Shown in pieces: positions 1-29,077 of a DNA stretch of 64,000 nt. Both the position numbers and the translations under genes were made by a program. A model generated the notes under the pieces. That model saw only the letters and a list, made by a program, of their open reading frames with translations, did no database searches and was not told the origin of the DNA. The number at the start of each line of letters is the position of its first letter. The stretch's first letter is position 1. The DNA comes from a phage, in sequence record PZ166176.1; one strand, given 5' to 3'.

Positions 1-258
1 ATTCGTTTAAGGTGGAACACTAGGGACGAGTCTTGGCAATGTCAGATGGGATTATCTGGAGATGATCCAAGTATAAGTTTCAAAGTTACAAATGGTTTAG
101 ATCTTCTTAAACCTTATAAATATCTTGAAAGTGTTCCAGATGGTCAATTGTATATAGTAGATACAGTTAAGATTAATGGTCGTCCTGGGTATACAACTAC
201 AGGTCGAGATAAACGTTTTGTATTGGTTTATATTGATAACAAACCTAATCAGGCGTAA
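1..258 (+). CDS. 3' end of a CDS that begins upstream of the window (probable virion structural protein)
   Basis: Frame of the 46..258 ORF stays open back to position 1; sits at the head of the baseplate module. Confidence 0.4.
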   Translation: MRLRWNTRDESWQCQMGLSGDDPSISFKVTNGLDLLKPYKYLESVPDGQLYIVDTVKINGRPGYTTTGRDKRFVLVYIDNKPNQA

Positions 259-267
259 GGAGATAAT

Positions 268-1278
268 ATGGCAGAAAGAGAGTATACAAAAGCTCCTGCC
301 CCTAATTTAAACAGGGCATACAAATTATTAATTGGTTCTGCCACAAACACAATACAGAAGAGAACTAAGAACTCGGCATTTAAATCTACAGTAGATTTGG
401 ATACCAAGTTAGGGACAACAGAAAAATCCTCTTCTAATTTGTATTTGTTGCAAGACCATCAAATAACCTTCAGCATTAAGAAAGATAATAACAAAGATCC
501 TAACCAAGCAGAGATTGTAGTTTATAACCTTTCGGATGATACTGTTAATTATATAAACCGTGGTATCCGAAATAACTTGGCTGTTGCTTTAGCGGTAGGA
601 TACGAAGGTGAAGAGTTGGTTATGATCTTCAAAGGAACTATCCAATGGGTTAGTGATACTTTTGACTCGGTAGACAGGAAAACCACTTTACACTGTTTGG
701 ATGGCGGTATTAACATTGCAGAAGCAAGAACAAGCCGCAGTTATCCAAAAGGAACTAAAATCAAACGTGTTGTGACAGATTTGGTAAAGGATTTAGGAAC
801 TACAGAAGGTAATATACACGTAGATAATGATCAAACCTTATCTTCAGCAACAGCTATGTGTGGAAACACTTCACATTACCTAGAACATATTTGTAAAAGT
901 ATTGATCACAATGTGTCAATACAAGATGGATCTGTTTATGTTACTCCTCGTTCACAAATGTCTAGTGCACGTAGCGCCTATATTAGCCCTGAAACTGGTC
1001 TGATAGGAAGTCCAGAACCATTCCACAACGATATAAAACCTACTAAAAAAGTTACCAAGTCCTCTAAGAAGGCAAAGAAACCTACAGATGGTGTTAAATT
1101 CAAATGCCAAATGAATGGTGCAATATTACCAGAAAAAACAATCTGGTTAAAAAGCCGAGATTATGACGGTCCATTTAAAGTTGTTTCTGTTTCTCACAAT
1201 GGTGATAAAGAGGGTAAAGAGTGGGTTACTGAAGTGGAGTGTGTATCCGTGTCTGAAATAATGACTAAGGAGAAATAA
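268..1278 (+). CDS. putative baseplate hub / tail structural protein
   Basis: 336 aa ORF with AGGAG RBS, immediately upstream of the spike gene; no diagnostic motif seen, function is from position only. Confidence 0.4.
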   Translation: MAEREYTKAPAPNLNRAYKLLIGSATNTIQKRTKNSAFKSTVDLDTKLGTTEKSSSNLYLLQDHQITFSIKKDNNKDPNQAEIVVYNLSDDTVNYINRGIRNNLAVALAVGYEGEELVMIFKGTIQWVSDTFDSVDRKTTLHCLDGGINIAEARTSRSYPKGTKIKRVVTDLVKDLGTTEGNIHVDNDQTLSSATAMCGNTSHYLEHICKSIDHNVSIQDGSVYVTPRSQMSSARSAYISPETGLIGSPEPFHNDIKPTKKVTKSSKKAKKPTDGVKFKCQMNGAILPEKTIWLKSRDYDGPFKVVSVSHNGDKEGKEWVTEVECVSVSEIMTKEK

Positions 1279-14788: not shown

Positions 14789-17700
14789 ATGGCAACATTC
14801 CCAACATATCCAGCAACGTCTCTCGAACAGGGCGTAGACCTGGTTATTTTCTCATCTAACCAACTCCATGATGTTATTAATGGAAGTGCTACAGAGAGTA
14901 TTGAAACAGAATCAGGGTTGATACCAACCCTGAGAAAAGCCCTTGTTGACAACTTTTTCTTTAAAAGCCCATTGGATTGGGCGCAAGGCACAAACGAAAC
15001 AGTTTTTAACCAACTTCGTTATTTCCAGAATGGAGTATTGAGCGGTTATTACTATGCCCCTAACGCTACATTGGTTAACCCAATCCCTATGCAAGGGACT
15101 CCAGTAGGAGATAACAACTGGGTATTGTGGGGACTGAAGACAGAACAATTGGCAACAGAAGTCACCCCTTGGGTATATTCTGGTGCAACTGGTTATGAAA
15201 CAGTAATTAGTCCTCCTTACATCTTTGATAGTGCTATTGTTACGATCAATGGTGTTATTCAGGTTCTGGGGGAAGCTTTCCGTATAGAAGACAGTAAGAT
15301 CATCTTATCTGAACCTTTGGGACACGATCCTGCAACAGGACTGCCAAACAAGCTTTTTGCTTATATTGGTAAAATCGTAGCTTCAGCAGATACAGATCCT
15401 AATCTAGAGAACCGTCTTGTTAGTTTAGAAACAAAAACGGAAGAACTAACAGAAAGCATGGATAAAGTCCCTCTGCAAGCTATTGCTCGTAAGTATGGTT
15501 TGTTAGATGATGAGGTGGCTTACGCAACAGCAGGTCAATCGTTAACAGGGATTAAAGCTCTGTATGATCCGGTAGCACAGTCTTCCTACACATTACCTCC
15601 TAACATCACAGGAACTTTAACATCCTTATCTGTTTCTGGAGTAATGACTTATTCTGGAGGATCTGTAGACCTTTCTGCACTGGCTGTTGAGCGTGGACAG
15701 TTTGTTCATTTGCCTACAAGCTTTGGTAATAACGTAACTCTGACAGCTAAAAATCAGACGATTGGACGTGGTGCTGGTCGTTATCGTTGGGCTGGAAGTT
15801 TACCAAAAAGTATTTTGGCCTCTGATACATTGGAGACAAGCGGAGGATTAGGTCCAAATGCATGGGTTCTGACTAATACAGAAGGACTGTTAACCCCTCG
15901 TGGTGGAACATACAACGATCTATTCGATGTTGTCTACTTGTCAGAATTTGCTAACAATACAACTACCTATACCACACCAGAAGCAGCTTTCCAGGCGGCA
16001 CTGTTAGCAGCAAAAGCTTCGAAAAGCAAGATTCTCGATGCTTACGGTTGCGACATGACTTTCACGACAAGCTCTTTTGATATTCAAGATATCACTTTGC
16101 GTGGTGGTGTGTTCCGTGGTCAACGCGACTATCGTGTGCAGAATGCTACAGTAGAAGGCACAACTTTCCGTAACTCTCGTGTTATGTATTGGGGTGGTGC
16201 TGTGCGCATGTTCGATTGTTTGTGGGACGGTGCTCCTCGCGCAGGTCAAGTTGGTAGCTTGGTATTCCAAGGCAACCCAATATCAGGTACTTTTGAAATT
16301 GATAATTGTACTTTTAAAAACGGGTTATATGGCATTCTTCAACAAGGAACAGGGGAACCAGTAACACGCGGTGTCTTCCGTAACCTTACCTTCATGGACA
16401 TGCAAGGTGATGCAATAGAACTGAACGTCATCAATAAACATTATGACGATGGTTGTGTGATTGAGAATATTTACCTGTCTAATATCGATGGGACTAACGC
16501 TCCTATTCCTCTGTCCAACTGGGGTATCGGTATCGGTGTAGCTGGTAAAGGACCATATGGTTACGGAATCCCTGATGATCAATATTGTAAGAACATTACA
16601 ATTCGTAACGTTTTTGCAAAACGTTGTCGTCAGATTGTCCACGTAGAAGTTGGTCGTAATATCTCTATCGAAAACATTCATGGCGATCCAGATCAAACCG
16701 TATCTGTTGGGACAGGTTTGGCAACTGGCGCAGTTGTAATGTATGGAAGTAAAGACTTTACGATTGATGGTGTTTATGGAGAGCCTAAAACAGACGGTAG
16801 CACACTTGCAAGTAATATCCGTATGATTTACTTGGAGTGGGGAACTAACGCAGTTCTGGATGAAGAGGGTAATCCGGTAGTTCCGGCACAGGGCAGACCT
16901 TCAAACCCATGCTTTAACTATTCTGTTCGTAACATTCACACCAAAACTGGGCGTGTTTTTGCGGGAGTTTCCGCTGGGCCAGGTTATGAAAACAGAGTTA
17001 GCTTTGAAAATATTCGTTGCGCTGCCTTGCAGTTGTTCGGTATAGCTTCTTGGCTTTCAATGTCTAACATCACCTGTAATATCTTCGATTGTGTTGGTCA
17101 ACCTGAATCTGGTCCAGGGACATTTTATGATGGATTCTTCCGTAGAGAAAAATCTGTTCTTGAAATGGTTAACGTAAACTGTTACCCAGATGGCAAGACG
17201 ATGGTTACTGGTCGTCCACAGTGGAGCCGTTGCCGTTACTCGGATATTCATCGTGTCAACTGTAATGTTGAAGCTAATATGTATACCAATATCGCAGGTG
17301 GTATTGGAGCTATTGTAGGGACAACGGGCAAAGTTTATTACTTAGAGCCTAATCCTAGTCGAAACATTGATGGAATGCATTTCCCAACAGGGAAAGAGTT
17401 TGACAAAGGGGATATGATAGTCAAGGCGGATAATACGTTCTTCCTTGTAACAACAAGTGGGGCATATATTCCAGATATCCCAGCTTTCGGTATTCGAGCT
17501 ACACAGGCAGGAGATACCTTCCTGACACAGAACTTGACTCCTAACGGGACAGCAACAAATGCTTCTTGGTTGTATCATTACCCTCTGTCAGCAGGGACAC
17601 GTATCCGTATTCCTGGCGCTGGTGTAGGTGGAGCAGATTTGGACACAGTTATTACTCGTGCACCTTATCAAGATAATGATACGTGGACTAACCCAGTTAA

Positions 17701-17842
17701 AATAGACATTGCAGATCCAATTGTAACGCCTACAAGTGCTGGAGTTAGAATTAAAACCATACCTAATGATTCCAGTAATGTTTCTGTAGGTAATACTGCG
17801 GTTATTCGCCCAACGCCAGTAGTAGATGTGCCAACAACCTAA
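14789..17842 (+). CDS. tailspike protein with beta-helix (candidate polysaccharide depolymerase)
   Basis: 1017 aa; shares the SDTLETSGGLGPNAWV motif with the other fibre genes; long Gly/Asn/Val-rich repeats typical of pectate-lyase-like folds. Confidence 0.6.
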   Translation: MATFPTYPATSLEQGVDLVIFSSNQLHDVINGSATESIETESGLIPTLRKALVDNFFFKSPLDWAQGTNETVFNQLRYFQNGVLSGYYYAPNATLVNPIPMQGTPVGDNNWVLWGLKTEQLATEVTPWVYSGATGYETVISPPYIFDSAIVTINGVIQVLGEAFRIEDSKIILSEPLGHDPATGLPNKLFAYIGKIVASADTDPNLENRLVSLETKTEELTESMDKVPLQAIARKYGLLDDEVAYATAGQSLTGIKALYDPVAQSSYTLPPNITGTLTSLSVSGVMTYSGGSVDLSALAVERGQFVHLPTSFGNNVTLTAKNQTIGRGAGRYRWAGSLPKSILASDTLETSGGLGPNAWVLTNTEGLLTPRGGTYNDLFDVVYLSEFANNTTTYTTPEAAFQAALLAAKASKSKILDAYGCDMTFTTSSFDIQDITLRGGVFRGQRDYRVQNATVEGTTFRNSRVMYWGGAVRMFDCLWDGAPRAGQVGSLVFQGNPISGTFEIDNCTFKNGLYGILQQGTGEPVTRGVFRNLTFMDMQGDAIELNVINKHYDDGCVIENIYLSNIDGTNAPIPLSNWGIGIGVAGKGPYGYGIPDDQYCKNITIRNVFAKRCRQIVHVEVGRNISIENIHGDPDQTVSVGTGLATGAVVMYGSKDFTIDGVYGEPKTDGSTLASNIRMIYLEWGTNAVLDEEGNPVVPAQGRPSNPCFNYSVRNIHTKTGRVFAGVSAGPGYENRVSFENIRCAALQLFGIASWLSMSNITCNIFDCVGQPESGPGTFYDGFFRREKSVLEMVNVNCYPDGKTMVTGRPQWSRCRYSDIHRVNCNVEANMYTNIAGGIGAIVGTTGKVYYLEPNPSRNIDGMHFPTGKEFDKGDMIVKADNTFFLVTTSGAYIPDIPAFGIRATQAGDTFLTQNLTPNGTATNASWLYHYPLSAGTRIRIPGAGVGGADLDTVITRAPYQDNDTWTNPVKIDIADPIVTPTSAGVRIKTIPNDSSNVSVGNTAVIRPTPVVDVPTT

Positions 17843-17903: not shown

Positions 17904-19928
17904 ATGAATTTAACAAGACCTAATAGTGCGATAGCCGATCTGGTAGAAGCTACTTATCGAAAACGTCGCAGCTTTGAGGCAGGTTTTACATTACGTAATT
18001 CCCGTGAAGTTTTGCTGTTAGCAGCAGAAGGGAATTATTACCAATGGAAAGGAACTTTTCCTAAAGTTGTTCCAGCAAACTCTACGCCAGCCACCACAGG
18101 TGGTATTTCTTCCCTTGCATGGCAAAGTGTTGGGACCGCTGATGATATAGCAATTATCAATGCCAAGTTTACGGCAATGCAGCAACAGATTGATGATCTG
18201 TCGGAAACAATACCTGAAGCTGGTAAATCGGCTTATCAGATCGCACTTGATAATGGTTTTGTTGGAACAGAAGCACAATGGCTTGCTTCTTTGAAAGGGG
18301 ATACTGGTGCTCAACTTAATATTAAAGGATCATTAGCAAACACTAGTGAACTACCATCCACAGGTAACGTTGCAGGGGATGGTTATATCGTAGGTGATGT
18401 AATCTACGCTTGGGATGGTTCTGTTTGGAAACTTATTTCTTCTCTTGGGCCAGAAGGTAAATCAGCTTACGAGGTATGGTTGGCAGATGGTAATACAGGA
18501 TCTGTTTATGATTTTCTTACCTCTATAAAAGGTGATAAAGGTGATGTTGGTCCTACAGGGCCACAGGGAGCACCTGGTGTTAACGCCAACGGTTTTGATT
18601 ATCGTGGGGATTTGCCTTCTACAAGTAACTTACCACAACCAAACTCTGAAAACGTAAGTCAAGCTTATTCTATCAATGGTAATCTTTATGTCTCTAATGG
18701 GACAGCTTGGGTCAACATGGGTAATATTGTTGGTCCTCAAGGTCCACAAGGTGAGGCAGGTAAAGACGGTCTTGATGGAACAGATGGAGATGAAGGGAAG
18801 TCTGCATATCAAAGTTGGCTGGATGCTGGTAATGAAGGGACAGAAGTAGATTTTATTGCCTCACTTAAAGGTCCAAAAGGAGACAAAGGTGATCAAGGAG
18901 AGCGAGGTCCACAAGGTGAACTAGGTCCACAAGGACCAGTGGGTGCAACAGGATCAGGCTTAGATATTATCGGGGTTCTGAACAGTGAAGCTGAACTTCC
19001 TCCTACCGGAGAAGTAGGTGATGCATATAAAATTAATAATGATTTATATGTTTGGGTTCAAGATGCTACGGAATGGATGAATGTTGGCAGTCTTGGAGGA
19101 ACATCAATTACAGCTAAAGGTCATGTTCCGAACAGTGAAGCTCTCCCTGTTTATAATAACTATGGCGATGCCTACTTAACTGAAGACACTAGTAATCTTT
19201 ACATCTATACCTACGATCAAGACACCAATTCCGCATCTTTTGTTGACATGGGAAGTATTAAAGGCGACAAAGGTGAAAAAGGGGATAAAGGAGATAAGGG
19301 TGATCCTGGAACAAACGGAACCAACGGTACTGATGGGACCAACGGTAAGGACGGCGCACAGTGGTTTGTAGCAACAACTAATCCAGTCGCAGGAGACGGT
19401 GTTATCAATGATTACGCCTTCAATACTACCACTGGAGCAGTGTTCAAGAAAACAGATTCTTCTACTTGGACACTTATAGGAACTCTTCCTAGTATACCAG
19501 AAGCACCTCAAGACGGCTTGACGTATGGTCGTTCTGATGGGAACTGGATTGAAATATCAGGATCAGATCCTACGGAAGCTATAACACCAACTAGAGTTAC
19601 AGCAGGTTTCATGGAACTTGAAACAACTACTGCCAACTCTGGAGCATCTTGGACCCCTTCTGGAACTTCCAATATGTATGTTGTTACAGTAACTGACGCT
19701 CTGACAGTTGGAGCATGGCCTGGTGTCACTGGCTCTACAAAGCCTAAAGCGTTTTCAGCAATGATTTATTTGATTCAAGATACAACGGGACACACGGTTA
19801 CACTAGATGCGTCTTATGGAGCACTGAATGATACAGAAATAGCAACTACTGCTAACGCAGTAACAATTTTGCAATTAACGTATCCTGGTGTGGGTAATGT
19901 CGTGGACATGGTTGTTGTAACACGATAA
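17904..19928 (+). CDS. tail fibre protein with phage tail-fibre repeats and collagen-like Gly-X-Y tracts
   Basis: 674 aa; three copies of GKSAY-x-WL-x-GN-x-G...SLKG-x-KGD and Gly-X-Y runs (GPQGPQGEAGKDGLDGTDGDEG; GDKGEKGDKGDKGDPGTNGTNGTDGTNGKDG). Confidence 0.7.
   Translation: MNLTRPNSAIADLVEATYRKRRSFEAGFTLRNSREVLLLAAEGNYYQWKGTFPKVVPANSTPATTGGISSLAWQSVGTADDIAIINAKFTAMQQQIDDLSETIPEAGKSAYQIALDNGFVGTEAQWLASLKGDTGAQLNIKGSLANTSELPSTGNVAGDGYIVGDVIYAWDGSVWKLISSLGPEGKSAYEVWLADGNTGSVYDFLTSIKGDKGDVGPTGPQGAPGVNANGFDYRGDLPSTSNLPQPNSENVSQAYSINGNLYVSNGTAWVNMGNIVGPQGPQGEAGKDGLDGTDGDEGKSAYQSWLDAGNEGTEVDFIASLKGPKGDKGDQGERGPQGELGPQGPVGATGSGLDIIGVLNSEAELPPTGEVGDAYKINNDLYVWVQDATEWMNVGSLGGTSITAKGHVPNSEALPVYNNYGDAYLTEDTSNLYIYTYDQDTNSASFVDMGSIKGDKGEKGDKGDKGDPGTNGTNGTDGTNGKDGAQWFVATTNPVAGDGVINDYAFNTTTGAVFKKTDSSTWTLIGTLPSIPEAPQDGLTYGRSDGNWIEISGSDPTEAITPTRVTAGFMELETTTANSGASWTPSGTSNMYVVTVTDALTVGAWPGVTGSTKPKAFSAMIYLIQDTTGHTVTLDASYGALNDTEIATTANAVTILQLTYPGVGNVVDMVVVTR
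18213..19352 (+). repeat. in-frame coding repeats (tail-fibre repeat units and collagen-like triplets)
   Basis: Repeated peptide units seen in the translation of 17904..19928; the antisense ORF 19217..19408 is an artefact of this repeat. Confidence 0.6.
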
Positions 19929-19930
19929 CA

Positions 19931-19958
19931 GAAGCCCCGAAAGGGGCTTTCTTTTTAT
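19931..19958 (+). terminator. rho-independent terminator
   Basis: AAGCCCC-GAAA-GGGGCTT hairpin followed by TCTTTTTAT. Confidence 0.7.
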
Positions 19959-19969
19959 GGAGGGTTTAA

Positions 19970-22642
19970 ATGTTTCCAATTCCAATATTTACTATTATGA
20001 CCAGCACTGGTGTCGTTCCTCTGCCAGCAGGTATTGTTAAAAAAGTAATTACTTTAGATTACCCAGATAATGCTGGTAATTCTAACAGCAGTTTAGCAAT
20101 TTTGCTTAATGATGGTAGATTGTTTACTCAAGGCGCAAACCTCTTTGGTGAGATTGCAGATGGAACTCGTAGTGCACGATTCAATAATTTCCACTTAGCT
20201 TCTACTGTAGTAGCGGATGTGTTTACCGCAGATCGTTGTTTTGTTATTAAAACTAACAGTGGGGGATGGCAATATTCAGGATTGACAGCAGGGTTAGTAG
20301 GATCTATAGCAGCAGGTGGTACGGATGCATGTGTAACTACTTGGACCAGCTTTCCATCTGTAATAACAGGGACTATCTCTTTAGCCAATCTTAAAGAGGT
20401 TAAGGGAGGATATAACAACACTCTCTGGTTAATGAATAGTGGTGTTCTTTATGGATCGGGTCAAAACACAGTAGGTAGTTTAGGTGCAAGCACTACTAAC
20501 GAAGTTTCTACTCCTCGTCAGATAACAAGTTCAGCAGTTGCTTTTGATGCAGGTTACAACCAATGCTCTTATGTCAACAATGTGGGAACCTTGCGTGTTT
20601 GTGGAGCTAGTAAAGGTTTAGCAGGTAATAATAACACAACAACAGCTTTTGTCAATGCCAAGATATCCGCTACTGAAACAGTGTATGTCAAAGATTACAT
20701 CAATACAGTTTCCCAGACAATAGTTGTAGGAGATACCTCCGGTGGCACGGGTACAGTAAACTACTTATATGTCAGGTCTAATACAGAAACAACCTACACT
20801 AAACTGGATACCTTTGCAGCAGGTTTCTCAACATGGAAATTTCCACCAAGCCGCCACTCTTTTTTCGTTGGGATCAACAATTCCTTGTGGGCTATTGGTA
20901 AGAACTACACTGCAAACTTAGGTTTGGGGTATGATTCTGCGAGCGGAGATCCACTCCAAGTGGGAAAACCAGTTAAACCTGAAGGAGTGGGTTCTTGGGA
21001 TATAAACAAGCTCACAAGCGTTCATACGCTGAATATGGATATTACTAACCAATTAGGTTATCAAGGAACCTTTTTCGTTTATAACGGGGATATGTATTAT
21101 TCCGGTATTTGGAAAGATGGGAAAGCCTCGTATCTGTTCAACAGTGGTCTAAATTATAATAAATTCACACCGATAGCAAGCTCTGTGATTACGGGTGATA
21201 TTCTGGCAACTGGTTTAACTACAGATTCTTTAGGAATTTGTATTGTAGGTGGAACTAAACAGTTGACACATTCTGTTAGCCCAGAAGGAGGTAAACTTTT
21301 CAATATTAAATACACTTCTTCTGCCCCTGCAAACATGACAATATCATCCACTGGTTTAATGACTTTCCATGCAGAAGGTGGTTTTGATGCAGGTATGACA
21401 GCCTTAAACGCTGAAGGAACAACTTTATCAGATACCTCTGGAGGATATGCTTCAACATTGAGTGTTTACACCCCTAGCTTATCTGCGATGGATGTAGGAA
21501 CAACACAAACAATGGTAGCAGAAATAACGCCAACAGGAGCAGCAAGCTTACCTGGTATGGTTGTTGAGTATACAACTACAGATCCTAATGTTGCTACAGT
21601 AGATCCTACAACTGGTGTAATAACTGGTGTTGGTGATGGTGGTTGTAGAATTGGTTGCACAGCTACGTATCAAGGTGTTGTTACCGCTTCTGATAGTTCT
21701 TATTTAACGGTGAACGCTGTTGCGGGAAAGGAGTTAGCTCCATCTCCGAGTAGTAGTTTAACGGTTCTAAACGGATATTTCAACCACTCGGCAGATGGGG
21801 CAATTACGTTCCCAATTTTATCGGGTACTGTCACACCAGCTAACTTTGTAGTTAAGGTGGATGACGTTGTAATACCTTCAAATAAAGTAATATTTAGAAA
21901 TAAAGCTTTCTCTACAGTGGATAGTTATCCAGCAGGAGAATATAGACTGGCTATTGAATTTGCAAGTGCTTCAGTAGTGAATAGTGTTGATGTGTCTATG
22001 GAAGCAAATCCAGATCTTTTAGAATTATGGGGCGGCAACAGAATTGGTTATTCTACAAGCCCAGCCTCACAATTCTTAAAAGGTTGTGCTAACTTAAGAC
22101 GAATAACTTCTGATTGTTTTAGTAACACATCTTACACCGGAACATCTATAAGTGGTATCTTCTCTGGCTGTACAAGTTTGACAGCTATCCCTGAAGGATT
22201 ATTCAGTGATGCTTTATTTCCTTCAATGACAACAATGTCAAGCACGTTTGAAGGTTGTACATCTTTAACATCTATTCCTTCAGATTTATTTAAGAATCTA
22301 TCAAAAGTTACAAGATATTCTTACACCTTTAAAGATTGCACCTCTCTTGCAGAAGTTCCAGCAGGAATGTTTGATAATATTCCAACGAAAGTGACCTCTT
22401 TAACAGCTACATTCCAAGGTTGTTTAGCACTTACAGATTTTAATAAAATCTTTAATGACAACCCAGGGTTAACGGTTTGTGGTCAACGTGGAGCATTATC
22501 TTCTTTCTTTAGTGGATGCACAAATCTTACAGGAACAGGAGTAACATTAACAAGCACATTAGGTGGAGCAGCTAATAGTTACCTATTCAGGTATTGCACA
22601 AAACTTTCTGATTATAACAATATTCCTTCGGGTTATAAATAA
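19970..22642 (+). CDS. distal tail fibre / receptor-binding protein with Big_2-like domain and BspA-type leucine-rich repeats
   Basis: 890 aa; Big_2-like segment (MDVGTTQTMVAEITPTGAASLPGMVVEYTTTDPNVATVDPTTGVITGVGDGG); C-terminal repeats of F-x-GCTSLT-x-IP-x-x-LF. Confidence 0.55.
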   Translation: MFPIPIFTIMTSTGVVPLPAGIVKKVITLDYPDNAGNSNSSLAILLNDGRLFTQGANLFGEIADGTRSARFNNFHLASTVVADVFTADRCFVIKTNSGGWQYSGLTAGLVGSIAAGGTDACVTTWTSFPSVITGTISLANLKEVKGGYNNTLWLMNSGVLYGSGQNTVGSLGASTTNEVSTPRQITSSAVAFDAGYNQCSYVNNVGTLRVCGASKGLAGNNNTTTAFVNAKISATETVYVKDYINTVSQTIVVGDTSGGTGTVNYLYVRSNTETTYTKLDTFAAGFSTWKFPPSRHSFFVGINNSLWAIGKNYTANLGLGYDSASGDPLQVGKPVKPEGVGSWDINKLTSVHTLNMDITNQLGYQGTFFVYNGDMYYSGIWKDGKASYLFNSGLNYNKFTPIASSVITGDILATGLTTDSLGICIVGGTKQLTHSVSPEGGKLFNIKYTSSAPANMTISSTGLMTFHAEGGFDAGMTALNAEGTTLSDTSGGYASTLSVYTPSLSAMDVGTTQTMVAEITPTGAASLPGMVVEYTTTDPNVATVDPTTGVITGVGDGGCRIGCTATYQGVVTASDSSYLTVNAVAGKELAPSPSSSLTVLNGYFNHSADGAITFPILSGTVTPANFVVKVDDVVIPSNKVIFRNKAFSTVDSYPAGEYRLAIEFASASVVNSVDVSMEANPDLLELWGGNRIGYSTSPASQFLKGCANLRRITSDCFSNTSYTGTSISGIFSGCTSLTAIPEGLFSDALFPSMTTMSSTFEGCTSLTSIPSDLFKNLSKVTRYSYTFKDCTSLAEVPAGMFDNIPTKVTSLTATFQGCLALTDFNKIFNDNPGLTVCGQRGALSSFFSGCTNLTGTGVTLTSTLGGAANSYLFRYCTKLSDYNNIPSGYK

Positions 22643-22643
22643 G

Positions 22644-22668
22644 AAAAGGAGCCAAATGGCTCCTTTCT
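22644..22668. terminator. bidirectional terminator at the convergence of the + and - blocks
   Basis: AAAGGAGCC-AAAT-GGCTCCTTT hairpin with T-rich flank on the + strand, between convergent genes ending at 22642 and 22670. Confidence 0.65.
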
Positions 22669-25744: not shown

Positions 25745-28700
25745 CTAGTGACAGGACGCCCAGGAATTACCCACATCATACCCAGCAGTAAGCTGAACAT
25801 TAAGATTGTAAAATTCTCCAGCCTTAGTAACAGCTAAAGCAGCAAGTTCACCTGCCCGACTATAAGCTGTAAACCATCCACCTTTGGGAGATTCATGAAT
25901 GTTAGCCCAAATTTGCCCTGTCTCTTTTTCCTTATTATGCTTCCATTCTTCGACTTTAGCAAGGCATTCTTTATCAATTTTCTTTTGTTCTTCAGGATCG
26001 TCTACTTTCTTCCAACCTAATGATTCAGGTGAAAACCATTTAAATTCTACAAGGTTACGAGAAACTTCAAGCTGGGCTTCATCGTGATATGCAATCATTT
26101 GTTGCACGAAATCTTTATTCTTCCAGTCATCTTTAAAGAAGTCAACACTTAGCCCTTCTTCTTCGATCATGTCATCATAAATAACCATTGCACGTTTAGC
26201 ACAGATAACCCCACCGCTTTGGAACAGAGAGTTAAGAATCGCGTGAGCAGAACGAGTAGGAACCTTACGACCGTCAATACCCAAAACATATTGTTTACCA
26301 GTCTTAACCCAGAAATCGTTTAAACGTTCTTTAAGACGCGCCAATGGGAATGCAGCTTCCCAGAAAGCATCGAACACCAATTGCCCTGTAAACTTGTCGC
26401 TACCAATTGTTTTAGCAACCTTGTCGGCTTGTGCACCATAGGTAATACCATACTTAACAGATTTAGCAGGACTACGTTCAAATTTACGTCCAATAGTTTC
26501 AGTGATACGTTTTGCCATCATTGTGTGAACATCATTAGGTTTCTCTAACAACAGAGCGTTACAATATTCGTGTGGCTCCGGCTCGTACCGCCAACAGTTT
26601 CCTGTGATGGTAATGCAGTCTTTCTGACGCATGACCCACGTACCAAGTTCTGTTTGTGGACACCAAACATCCTCTACACCCCACTCTTCAATAGTCAAAC
26701 TTTGAACAGGAATGTGAGAGCGGTTAGTCAATGTTGCCACTTTTACTTTCTGCTCTTTTGTATTGAAAGCTACAGAGATATTGCCTCCATGCACCAGGTA
26801 CGAGGCAGTTAAAGCTGCTTCAAAAAGTTCACCTGGGTTCTGCGCCCAACGCCAAACAGGTTTTTGTTTATGTTCGTGCCAGTAACCATCTGCAATCAAG
26901 AAACCTTCCAAGAAAGCTACACGCTCGGCATGAGACATATTAACTACACGTTCTACCCACGGAACATCCCATTTACCTTGTTGAACAGAAGTTAAACTAT
27001 TTACCTGATCTTGTTCCATGTTAAATGGAGCATTACAAATAATGTTATCTCCTGTGCAAAGCTCGGCAGTTGTTCTGACTTTAGGCACATAAGTATTCCC
27101 TTTACTACGGGTATTAACATACCAACGGTGATCTGCTGTTGCACGGTAAGTGTGTGATTTCCCTTTAATCTCAAACGTCTTACTATTTTTATAGAAGACC
27201 TTACCTTTTACTTTAGTCCATTCTTTCAGACCTGTTTCAGCATTGTACCCTAAAATCTCATCCCCTTCCTTCAGGTCGTGATATCCTACCCAACCTTTAC
27301 GAGTCAAAGCTTGAGCATCCATCGGCACACAGTAATGCGATTCAATTTTTGCTTCCAAAGAGTCGAAGTCGTAGCCAATCTGGAAGTATTTAGGAACTTC
27401 TACACCAAACAAGTTACGCATCTCCCATCCAAACAAAGATGTGACACGAGGAATATTAGCTACAGATCTATGCTTCATACGAGAGGTTGCAGCATCACAT
27501 GTAGCGGCTGGGGTAGGAATACGCCCATCCGCCCTTACTGCGGCTAAGAAACCTTTATCGTATTCTTGATCTTCTTCATCTTCTTCCCAATCGGCACCGC
27601 CACCTAAAATAGAGTTCCTACGATGCTTATACGTTAAGTATTCTACAATCTGTGTAGCATAAGGAAACTTCTCACCCAAAGCTTGCAGGTTAGGACAAAT
27701 TTCTTTTTCCTGACCTTTGGTAAAACACGGGTTAGTCAATACTTTAAGACCGCGACCTTTACCTTTTGCTATACGCTCTTGAATCTTCCTTTCCAGGGTT
27801 TCCGGTGTGCACTCCAGATGATCACAACGATCCTGACAAAAATTAGAAGATAGGGTTTGCTCAACGTAAGCTCGAATACCTTTCTGAAGTTCTTCCTCGC
27901 TCTTTTTAATTTTGGTGCCAGATTTAAGCGTCAAGTCTTTATCTTTATATTCAGACGGTACCCAACCTAATCCTACGAGCCAGTTTTTAATATGGGTTGT
28001 ATCGTTCAATGTTGCAGGGATGTTAGGATCACATAGAGGCTCATCTGCTGCAACTGGTAGTTTCCACTCTTTCCCCAACATAACTAACCACCAATCGCCA
28101 TCCCTCTCTTCCAAATGACCATCATGTTTCTTAGCAAAATTGATCATATGGTTAGTTGGCTCTAAGTTCTTTTTAATTTGCAACTTAGGTGGAATAAAAG
28201 CCTTAAGATAACCTTTTGTTGCTGGTTTAGGTGGCAAAATAGGCTCAACGAGTAAACGAAGACGCTCCATTTCTGCATCCAAAAAAGCAAGGTTCTCTTC
28301 TGCTTGCTTCATGTTAAAAGCAAACCCACGGTGTTCCTGGCGTGTAATAATGTCTGCTACACGTTGTTCAAGTTCAAACGGACCTTCCCATTTATCATAA
28401 TCACCCCATTCTTCCATAAGGTAATTATATACGCTCGTATTGGCTTTGTTGTCATAGATACAGTAATAAAGCATGTCCGCAGCAAAAGTCTTAAATCGAT
28501 CCTCTTCTGGAATCTCTTTACGGAAATCTATTTTTACATCACCACCTGCCTTTCGAGAAAGTGCTGCCAAACTATGTCCTGATTTGCCCTCAATCTTTCG
28601 ATCTGGGTTTAACACTTTACTCAAAATCAAGGAGTCAATAAGTTTTACCTTATTTTTGCCCCACGTGTTATATTTAACACTGTAATCTAAGCCATAAAAC

Positions 28701-29077
28701 AGTTTTGTAGCCAACCAGTCGTAGTTGATACCGTTGTGAGCCACAGCCATTTCAACCAGATATTCAGGCTTATCTTTAAAATAACCTTCATGATTAATAA
28801 AGTCTGGGAAATCTTTTAGTTGAAAATGTGTGTAATCTTGCGCCACATACTCTTTAAGAACATATGTGTATTTGCCATCTGACTCTTCATAAGGACGCCC
28901 ATCAAAGATGTATTTAGGACCATCGTGGAAAGCTACTATTTCTCCTGTTTCATGGTTCTCTAAGACAATACAGTGCATTTGAAATGTGTCTTTGAGACGA
29001 TAAGGACTAGCTAAATAATCAATAGTGTCATTATTCAACAATCCGTTTGCTTCAATATCCCATGTAAACTTACTCAC
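25745..29077 (-). CDS. family A DNA polymerase (T7/Pol I-like) interrupted by an intein
   Basis: 1110 aa; exonuclease motif WDIEANGL; motif A YDFDSLEAKIESHY; motif B RSPAKSVKYGITYG; motif C YHDEAQLE; about 245 extra residues lie between motifs A and B. Confidence 0.85.
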   Translation of the reverse strand: MSKFTWDIEANGLLNNDTIDYLASPYRLKDTFQMHCIVLENHETGEIVAFHDGPKYIFDGRPYEESDGKYTYVLKEYVAQDYTHFQLKDFPDFINHEGYFKDKPEYLVEMAVAHNGINYDWLATKLFYGLDYSVKYNTWGKNKVKLIDSLILSKVLNPDRKIEGKSGHSLAALSRKAGGDVKIDFRKEIPEEDRFKTFAADMLYYCIYDNKANTSVYNYLMEEWGDYDKWEGPFELEQRVADIITRQEHRGFAFNMKQAEENLAFLDAEMERLRLLVEPILPPKPATKGYLKAFIPPKLQIKKNLEPTNHMINFAKKHDGHLEERDGDWWLVMLGKEWKLPVAADEPLCDPNIPATLNDTTHIKNWLVGLGWVPSEYKDKDLTLKSGTKIKKSEEELQKGIRAYVEQTLSSNFCQDRCDHLECTPETLERKIQERIAKGKGRGLKVLTNPCFTKGQEKEICPNLQALGEKFPYATQIVEYLTYKHRRNSILGGGADWEEDEEDQEYDKGFLAAVRADGRIPTPAATCDAATSRMKHRSVANIPRVTSLFGWEMRNLFGVEVPKYFQIGYDFDSLEAKIESHYCVPMDAQALTRKGWVGYHDLKEGDEILGYNAETGLKEWTKVKGKVFYKNSKTFEIKGKSHTYRATADHRWYVNTRSKGNTYVPKVRTTAELCTGDNIICNAPFNMEQDQVNSLTSVQQGKWDVPWVERVVNMSHAERVAFLEGFLIADGYWHEHKQKPVWRWAQNPGELFEAALTASYLVHGGNISVAFNTKEQKVKVATLTNRSHIPVQSLTIEEWGVEDVWCPQTELGTWVMRQKDCITITGNCWRYEPEPHEYCNALLLEKPNDVHTMMAKRITETIGRKFERSPAKSVKYGITYGAQADKVAKTIGSDKFTGQLVFDAFWEAAFPLARLKERLNDFWVKTGKQYVLGIDGRKVPTRSAHAILNSLFQSGGVICAKRAMVIYDDMIEEEGLSVDFFKDDWKNKDFVQQMIAYHDEAQLEVSRNLVEFKWFSPESLGWKKVDDPEEQKKIDKECLAKVEEWKHNKEKETGQIWANIHESPKGGWFTAYSRAGELAALAVTKAGEFYNLNVQLTAGYDVGNSWASCH
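26597..27331 (-). mobile_element. intein (Hint domain with LAGLIDADG-like motif) inside the DNA polymerase gene
   Basis: Residues 583-827: begins with Cys right after motif A, block-B-like TADH, FLEGFLIADGY (LAGLIDADG-like), ends ITGN followed by Cys +1; flanking sequence restores normal motif A to motif B spacing. Confidence 0.6.

Follow-up and report, generated by a model that had tools for sequence, protein, structure and literature searches.

Cysteine-containing leucine-rich repeats (LRRs) are found in the bacterial surface proteins of the BspA/TpLRR type (LRR_5, PF13306; structures 4fs7, BACOVA_04585, and 6mlx, TpLRR), where a repeat spans about 23 residues and carries the core AF-x-x-C-x-x-L followed by I-P. 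These proteins are often paired with Ig-like domains. Host recognition by phages of the rV5/phi92/CBA120 type involves trimeric tailspikes and fibres that combine a Tail_spike_N anchor with beta-helix enzymatic or collagen-like fibrous parts, and C-terminal modular exchange gives these receptor-binding proteins new specificities. Repeats of 26 residues, with an amphipathic pattern similar to that of the protein described here, are known from the DUF285/TIGR02167 PARCEL surface proteins, whose hallmark is palindromic DNA in the coding region (Roske et al. 2010, PMC2996958). Here we compare with these systems a gene of phage sequence PZ166176.1, of which a stretch of 64,000 nucleotides (the window) was analyzed. 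Its 890-amino acid (aa) product is encoded at the same locus as the rV5/phi92/CBA120-type receptor-binding proteins, and it ends in seven LRRs.

The predicted protein consists of five globular domains: an N-terminal RCC1-like propeller, two Ig-like domains of the Big_2 family, a beta-sandwich and the LRR array (Table 1). On balance, we lean towards a reading in which it is a tail-displayed, probably single-chain adhesin, with an exchangeable cassette of sandwich and LRRs that binds a host-surface ligand and tunes adsorption or host range. We favor this reading because of the locus and its synteny with fibre genes, the exchange of the cassette, the fusion of the same module to baseplate proteins in other phages, and the variability of outward-facing positions in the repeats.

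The original prediction for this gene counted at least five repeats, and seven are found. The motif F-x(1,2)-[GDY]-C-[TAL]-x-L begins at residues 702, 731, 760, 787, 815, 846 and 873, with cysteine-to-cysteine spacings of 28, 29, 27, 28, 32 and 26 residues (range 26-32). All seven repeats carry F-x-x-C, but the longer motif that had been quoted for them, CTSL[TA]x[IV]Pxx[LM]F, is complete in only three (731, 760 and 787) and lacks its full form in the other four. The wider family has a regular 27-residue unit, F..C..LTSIPEGLF.NN..VT.F..., with which the repeats in the window align in register. An indexed search with the C-terminal 300 residues returned 296 proteins, with E values down to 1e-49 outside the phage clade, and an exhaustive phmmer search returned 15,013 cluster representatives at E<=1e-3 (803 of them at E<=1e-30), many of which are giant multi-repeat proteins. 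By these matches the repeats are not a product of chance. At the coding level the repeat DNA is fully diverged. No tandem or periodic palindromic DNA was found in positions 21900-22642, which hold only two-copy direct matches of 12-18 nucleotides and two small inverted pairs.

Structure prediction supports an LRR solenoid rather than a beta-helix or another non-LRR fold. The AlphaFold2 (AF2) model of residues 591-890, built from 119 sequences, has a predicted local distance difference test score (pLDDT) of 91.3 and a predicted template modeling score (pTM) of 0.89. After the sandwich it has one short strand for every 27-28 residues or so, in line with the LRR fold, which is defined as a right-handed solenoid with one short parallel beta-strand per 20-30-residue repeat and a ladder of conserved hydrophobic and Asn or Cys residues. 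A single-sequence phmmer search matched a designed LRR protein (4psj, E 6e-6). At the family level, the profile of the narrow alignment A3, which includes the window sequence, matched LRRTM2 (E 2e-36), variable lymphocyte receptors (VLRs) and repebodies (E 1e-19 to 1e-11) and the BspA-like proteins 4fs7 and 4gt6 (E 2e-6).

Curated family models do not claim the repeats directly. Pfam LRR_5 (gathering cut-off 27.7 bits) gave no match to the full protein at E<=1 and none to residues 591-890 at E<=1e-3, whereas Big_2, the other family in the profile search that had been proposed, was found above its cut-off. DUF285 (PF03382; 13.3 bits, E 0.07, versus a cut-off of 25) and TIGR02167, the 'PARCEL repeat' (17.4 bits versus 30), are both sub-threshold, and the gene also lacks the palindromic DNA hallmark of PARCEL proteins. 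Among the 97 nearest homologues at E<=1e-3, however, LRR_5 is matched by 39, DUF285 by 24 and LRR_8 by 15. Since the repeats have no direct Pfam or NCBIfam assignment, their placement relies on structure and on family-level profiles. The cysteine core, (A)F-x-x-C-x-x-L and then I-P, fits BspA/TpLRR and the period of 27-29 residues fits DUF285/PARCEL, and thus we place the repeats as a divergent member of the cysteine-containing BspA/TpLRR-DUF285 ('PARCEL') superfamily that is a certified member of neither Pfam family. The label 'BspA-type', originally given to the repeats, is therefore apt at the superfamily level, given the cysteine core and the LRR_5 matches of homologues, but not for the protein itself, with its longer period and lack of an LRR_5 match. 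The protein also differs from BspA/TpLRR surface proteins in being encoded in a phage tail locus and in having no cell-anchoring domain in Pfam or NCBIfam scans. Short matches of 12 residues to Pfam PHD-1st_NSD (24 homologues) and Zn_ribbon_FGT1_2 (8 homologues) in alignment A4 appear to be artefacts of the periodic cysteine repeat, and precomputed Pfam labels for such proteins may mislead.

The full-length model has a pLDDT of 86.4 and a pTM of 0.55, the latter being expected for separate globular domains that are independent of one another. The first of these, an RCC1-like propeller that makes up the N-terminal 400 residues or so, was missed in the original prediction. It exceeds the cut-off of Pfam RCC1 (PF00415; 23.8 bits versus 21.7) and matches WD40_RLD at E 5e-11, yet with only 42.9 bits against a cut-off of 150. 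The AF2 model of this region is all-beta, with block pLDDT mostly about 80-95, and Foldseek matches include UVR8, the HERC2 RLD and RCC1 (E 1e-13 to 1e-9, template modeling score about 0.7, target-normalized). No solved phage protein is among the 50 top Foldseek matches listed for the propeller. The Big_2-like domain that had been predicted ahead of the repeats is present, but as two Ig domains rather than one. Big_2 (PF02368) scores 36.5 bits against a gathering cut-off of 22.8 over two stretches, the model has two beta-sandwiches, and PHROG matches cover residues 401-585, with PHROG 215, 'structural protein with Ig domain', also matched. The beta-sandwich that follows (residues ~598-686) gave no Pfam match when searched alone. 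Its homologues in alignments A1 and A4 have the consensus D.GDG...GEY..I, of which the 890-aa protein retains only the GEY..I half.

Comparison with close relatives shows that the region following the Ig tandem is a replaceable unit. Homologues P0008-10 are 99% identical to the 890-aa protein over residues 1-400 and 92-94% identical over residues 401-584, with no similarity detectable past residues 584-585, and their C-termini match the NCBIfam model NF048003, GTA_spike_fiber (GTA-head-spike-fibre-like). The sister phages phAPEC8, ESCO13 and phiWec179 carry at the same locus an allele of the same length class (888-891 aa) and with the same scaffold of propeller and two Big_2 domains, which is 98-99% identical over residues 1-584. 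The C-terminal 305 residues of this allele are unrelated, and form a beta-rich GTA_spike_fiber-like domain in place of sandwich and LRRs. Carriers of the GTA-like allele are phAPEC8_ev052, ESCO13 and phiWec179, and the domain is also present in Justusliebigvirus at ~62% identity. The LRR allele is carried by 36 records of Phapecoctavirus type, among them ESCO5, tuntematon and phiWec188/190. In these sequences, residues 586-890 are an exchangeable cassette, either LRR or GTA-like, on a propeller-Ig scaffold, and an exchange behind a near-identical scaffold is behavior typical of receptor-binding modules. Variation within the LRR allele points in the same direction. Across 13 alleles, the strand-flanking, outward-facing positions have an entropy of 0.93 bits, versus 0.47 bits for the core F, C and L positions.

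Other natural variants lack one or more of these parts. Variant P0029 has the propeller and two Big_2 domains without any cassette, whereas P0042 has two Big_2 domains, sandwich and LRRs without the propeller. In Justusliebigvirus VEcB, a syntenic gene for 628 aa (L086:4956-6842) carries the Big_2 tandem (64% identity) and a GTA-like cassette (~62%). The gene for the 890-aa protein has been named 'TfpM1' and was reported to be absent from Justusliebigvirus (PMC12695924), which is only partly right in view of the VEcB gene. The syntenic last gene of Vequintavirus codes for a 1,877-aa 'lateral tail fiber protein with intimin domain', which shares only residues 1-190, at ~40% identity. Paralogous cassettes on the propeller-Ig scaffold (P0021 and P0025) match DUF285, TIGR02167 and Mbov_0838. 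The Big_2 tandem is the constant element, with the propeller and the tips optional. Finally, a Logan Phapecoctavirus contig (L002:8705-9895) encodes a 396-aa in-frame fusion of residues 1-74 of the adjacent 674-aa fibre with residues 567-890 of the LRR protein. Here the Tail_spike_N anchor end is joined at a microhomology of ~9 nucleotides, CAA[A/G]GTGTTG, which is equivalent to a deletion of positions ~18126-21674 of the window. The protein cluster of this fusion has 11 member sequences, and the fusion may reflect either a natural deletion mutant or an artefact of assembly.

A similar pairing is found in Mu-like and P2-like prophages, in which the distal part of tail or baseplate proteins encoded next to fibre genes consists of Big_2 and then LRRs of the same type (30-49% identity). 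In these fusions the anchor is a wedge protein (Tail_P2_I or Phage_Mu_Gp48), whereas the 890-aa protein begins with its propeller. The prophage proteins also contain a larger number of repeats and exceed the LRR_5 cut-off, with scores of 41-121 bits. They include 'tail protein I' of Klebsiella phage ST16-OXA48phi5.4 (L003:4547-7573; Tail_P2_I, Big_2, LRR_5 and DUF285) and Mu gp48-like fusions on two prophage-like IMG/VR contigs (L007:4078-7365 and L008:3025-7365). The P2 gpI- and Mu gp48-like wedge proteins on these contigs have 1,008-1,447 aa, with Big_2 and long BspA-type LRR arrays. In IMG/VR, scanned with only two narrow peptide patterns, 187 stretches were confirmed, the best of which combine Phage_Mu_Gp48, Big_2 and LRR_5 (78-121 bits) and are 47-49% identical to the LRRs in the window. 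Metagenomic homologues of 375 and 468 aa are located in phage-like contigs, and most of this set has ~300-525 aa. By these comparisons, tail or baseplate proteins that end in an Ig domain and BspA-like LRRs are a recurrent architecture. We know of no functionally characterized example of the Mu/P2 baseplate-Big_2-LRR fusions, and our literature searches found no paper that describes an LRR tail protein or an Ig plus LRR tail architecture.

The LRR segment was detected at E<=1e-5 in 51 of 50,697 records of cultured phages, namely 36 of Phapecoctavirus type, 14 Klebsiella P2-like prophages and one Erwinia jumbo phage. These counts agree with the earlier view that LRR receptor-binding domains are uncommon in phage fibres, but the mode of recognition can hardly be called unusual, since Big_2 with LRR_5 recurs on the Mu gp48 and P2 gpI prophage proteins. 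An LRR tip is unusual among cultured phages but not unique. The closest cellular LRR relatives share ~50% identity over ~100 aa and belong to metagenome-assembled genomes of gut Bacteroidales, Clostridia and Alphaproteobacteria. No Enterobacteriaceae are found among the top 80 cellular matches. The suggestion that the domain was captured from a bacterial adhesin is not supported, and a recent capture was rejected, because the G+C content of the gene is unremarkable and no close donor was found.

The window comes from a Phapecoctavirus, a genus of rV5-like E. coli myoviruses in the subfamily Stephanstirmvirinae, and dozens of deposited phages share the 2,673-nucleotide gene stretch at 96-98.6% identity. 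The product matches PHROG 11922, 'tail protein', over its full length, and its counterpart ESCO5 gp226 is deposited under the same label. The open reading frame (ORF) has exactly the boundaries first predicted and, as was also predicted, is the last gene of the structural block on the plus strand. It sits directly after two Tail_spike_N genes in the tail-fibre locus, and beyond the strand switch lie SSB and replication genes. The first of the two preceding genes (14789-17842, plus strand) codes for a 1,017-aa protein with a PHROG match annotated 'colanic acid degradation' and a weak beta-helix match, and the second (17904-19928, plus strand) for the 674-aa fibre, which has collagen-like repeats. 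These two proteins probably belong to a branched receptor-binding complex like that of CBA120, to which the 890-aa protein might attach.

The hairpins on both sides of the gene are G+C-rich, with the upstream one located just 5' of the ribosome-binding site, and no sigma-70-like promoter was found on the plus strand between them. Together, the flanking hairpins and the lack of a detected internal promoter suggest that the gene is probably expressed by read-through and is attenuated relative to the upstream fibre genes. On the other side of the strand switch, the ORF for DNA polymerase I (25745-29077, minus strand) has 1,110 aa, versus 861 aa in the related contig L085. The ~250 extra residues lie in the middle of the protein and look intein- or homing-endonuclease-like by eye, and the only Pfam match is DNA_pol_A at residues 845-1009.

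Table 1. Coordinates of the gene, its flanking signals and its predicted protein domains in the window.
Feature	Position	Residues	Strand	Description	Source
Tail-block coding sequence (ESCO5 gp226)	19970..22642		+	ATG start, 890 aa	ORF list
Terminator-like hairpin, GAAGCCCCGAAAGGGGCTTT + T-run	19931..19950		+	Between the 674-aa fibre gene and the 890-aa gene	Pattern scan and sequence
Shine-Dalgarno-like GGAGGG	19960..19965		+	4 nucleotides 5' of ATG	Read from sequence
RCC1-like seven-bladed beta-propeller (predicted)	19988..21169	~7-400	+		Pfam, AF2 model, Foldseek
First Ig-like domain of the Big_2 tandem	21182..21454	~405-495	+		Big_2 profile, PHROG, model strand pattern
Second Ig-like domain	21461..21724	~498-585	+	Conserved part of the protein stops here	Strongest Big_2 match, 505-565
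Exchangeable C-terminal cassette	21725..22639	586-890	+	Linker, beta-sandwich and LRRs	Homologue comparison
Beta-sandwich domain, possibly PKD-like	21761..22027	~598-686	+		AF2 block pLDDT mostly 81-96
Seven leucine-rich repeats and C-terminal cap	22055..22639	696-890	+		Motif, AF2 model, family profile
Bidirectional terminator-like hairpin	22645..22666		both	After the stop codon, where tail and replication modules converge	Pattern scan

In the reading we favor, the 890-aa protein would be a modular, bead-on-a-string adhesin displayed at the periphery of the baseplate. The two Big_2 domains (residues 405-585) would serve as a spacer between the propeller and the cassette, and the LRR head might bind a host-surface ligand through its concave beta-sheet face, which is the face by which LRR proteins generally bind ligands. 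A swap between LRR and GTA-like cassettes would then change the ligand recognized and so tune adsorption and host range. Its presence on the virion, its attachment point, the identity of its ligand and its effect on host range are parts of this reading that we infer, and the monomeric state is suggested by monomer models only. Circumstantial support comes from the phiWec phages, where phiWec179 has the GTA-like allele and phiWec188/190 have the LRR allele, and where the phiWec179 and phiWec188 groups reportedly differ in the secondary factors that they require (PMC12695924).

Several observations weigh against this interpretation. The phiWec phages also differ in a second fibre gene (TfpL), which confounds the correlation, and the variability signal in the repeats is modest and comes from few sequences. 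The protein has no recognizable anchor domain by which it would attach to the tail. In the literature searched, we found no virion proteomics or microscopy that places it on the particle: an orthologue is not mentioned in the rV5 paper or its supplements, and an O177 'proteomics' paper has no mass-spectrometry terms in its text. The 2026 structure of phi92 left peripheral fibres I and II without a gene assignment (PMC13450770). Lastly, the variants without the cassette (P0029) or without the propeller (P0042 and Justusliebigvirus) indicate that no single part is universally required, which fits an accessory role better than that of a primary receptor-binding protein.

Such a role might be that of an environmental adhesin that binds mucus glycans, the surfaces of other cells or biofilm matrix, with host range determined by other proteins. 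Ig-like decoration proteins have been proposed to keep phages where their hosts are, and the Big_2 domains and the match to PHROG 215 are in line with this function, as are the parts that are dispensable in natural variants. The terminator-like hairpin 5' of the gene hints that it is expressed less than the adjoining fibre genes, and the LRRs have their nearest relatives among surface proteins of gut Bacteroidales and Clostridia. However, the sharp cassette swap between near-identical phages looks like selection for host-specific recognition, and fusions of the same type of LRR to baseplate wedge proteins are encoded next to fibre genes. Thus, we consider a purely environmental function unlikely, although it deserves to be kept in view.

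At the other extreme, the single-chain LRR head could serve an E. coli myovirus as a true module for receptor binding, with a protein or glycan ligand held on the concave face by analogy with internalins and VLRs, and with the swap between LRR and GTA-like cassettes switching the secondary receptor, at which the phiWec179 and phiWec188 groups hint. We offer this stronger version of the adhesin reading as a tentative proposal that we do not expect to hold in full.

The original prediction described the protein as a distal tail fibre. A classical fibre would be a homotrimer with its N-terminus plugged into the baseplate or another fibre, and with a trimeric LRR tip as the primary receptor-binding domain. 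The position of the gene in the tail-fibre locus is in accord with this, as are the pipeline labels 'tail protein' and 'tail fiber', the published name TfpM1 (PMC12695924) and the C-terminal allelic exchange, which is typical of fibres. Moreover, phi92-type phages are reported to have three fibre types, each with six trimers, one type being still unassigned (PMC13450770). However, no known fibre or tail-spike anchor domain is matched in Pfam, whereas both neighbors carry Tail_spike_N. We also detected no collagen, coiled-coil or beta-helix shaft, and the model has no elongated part, in contrast to rV5/phi92/CBA120-type proteins. A single chain usually suffices for propellers, Ig domains and LRRs to fold, and the monomer model is confident (pLDDT 86), with its domains self-contained. 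There is also no chaperone gene downstream in the ORF list. Given the absence of anchor and shaft and the autonomous globular folds, the label 'distal tail fibre' is not supported, and we regard a classical fibre as rather improbable. A non-virion protein, such as a late-expressed LRR/propeller protein that acts inside the cell or is released at lysis and is merely encoded at the end of the tail operon, would agree with the lack of proteomic evidence for virion association in the literature and with a gene that lies between terminator-like hairpins like an independent unit, but it is very improbable in view of the synteny with lateral tail fibre genes in three phage lineages, the covalent fusion of homologous Ig and LRR modules to Mu gp48 and P2 gpI baseplate proteins, and the contig that joins the cassette in frame to a Tail_spike_N anchor.

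Although known and widespread, the gene has been mis-described, and to see its product as a scaffold of propeller and Ig domains on which LRR or GTA-like heads can be swapped is a modest advance. Phapecoctaviruses are among the E. coli phages of broadest host range that are being tried for therapy and biocontrol, and the gene products that make up their several sets of fibres are still being assigned. A scaffold that carries one of two unrelated binding cassettes is a concrete candidate for a host-range determinant, and near-isogenic natural pairs exist, such as ESCO5 (LRR) and ESCO13 (GTA-like). If the protein is only an accessory adhesin, the result usefully corrects the annotation of more than 60 deposited genomes. 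Should the LRR head instead prove to bind a defined ligand in single-chain form, it would offer an attractive module for engineered recognition, as LRR scaffolds (repebodies and VLRs) are already in use as binders, and it would add a new fold class to the receptor-binding repertoire of phages. The baseplate-displayed Big_2-LRR modules of temperate phages are an uncharacterized class. A single-chain LRR receptor-binding module would be an undescribed structural class that is common to Mu- and P2-like prophages and to many uncultured gut phages.

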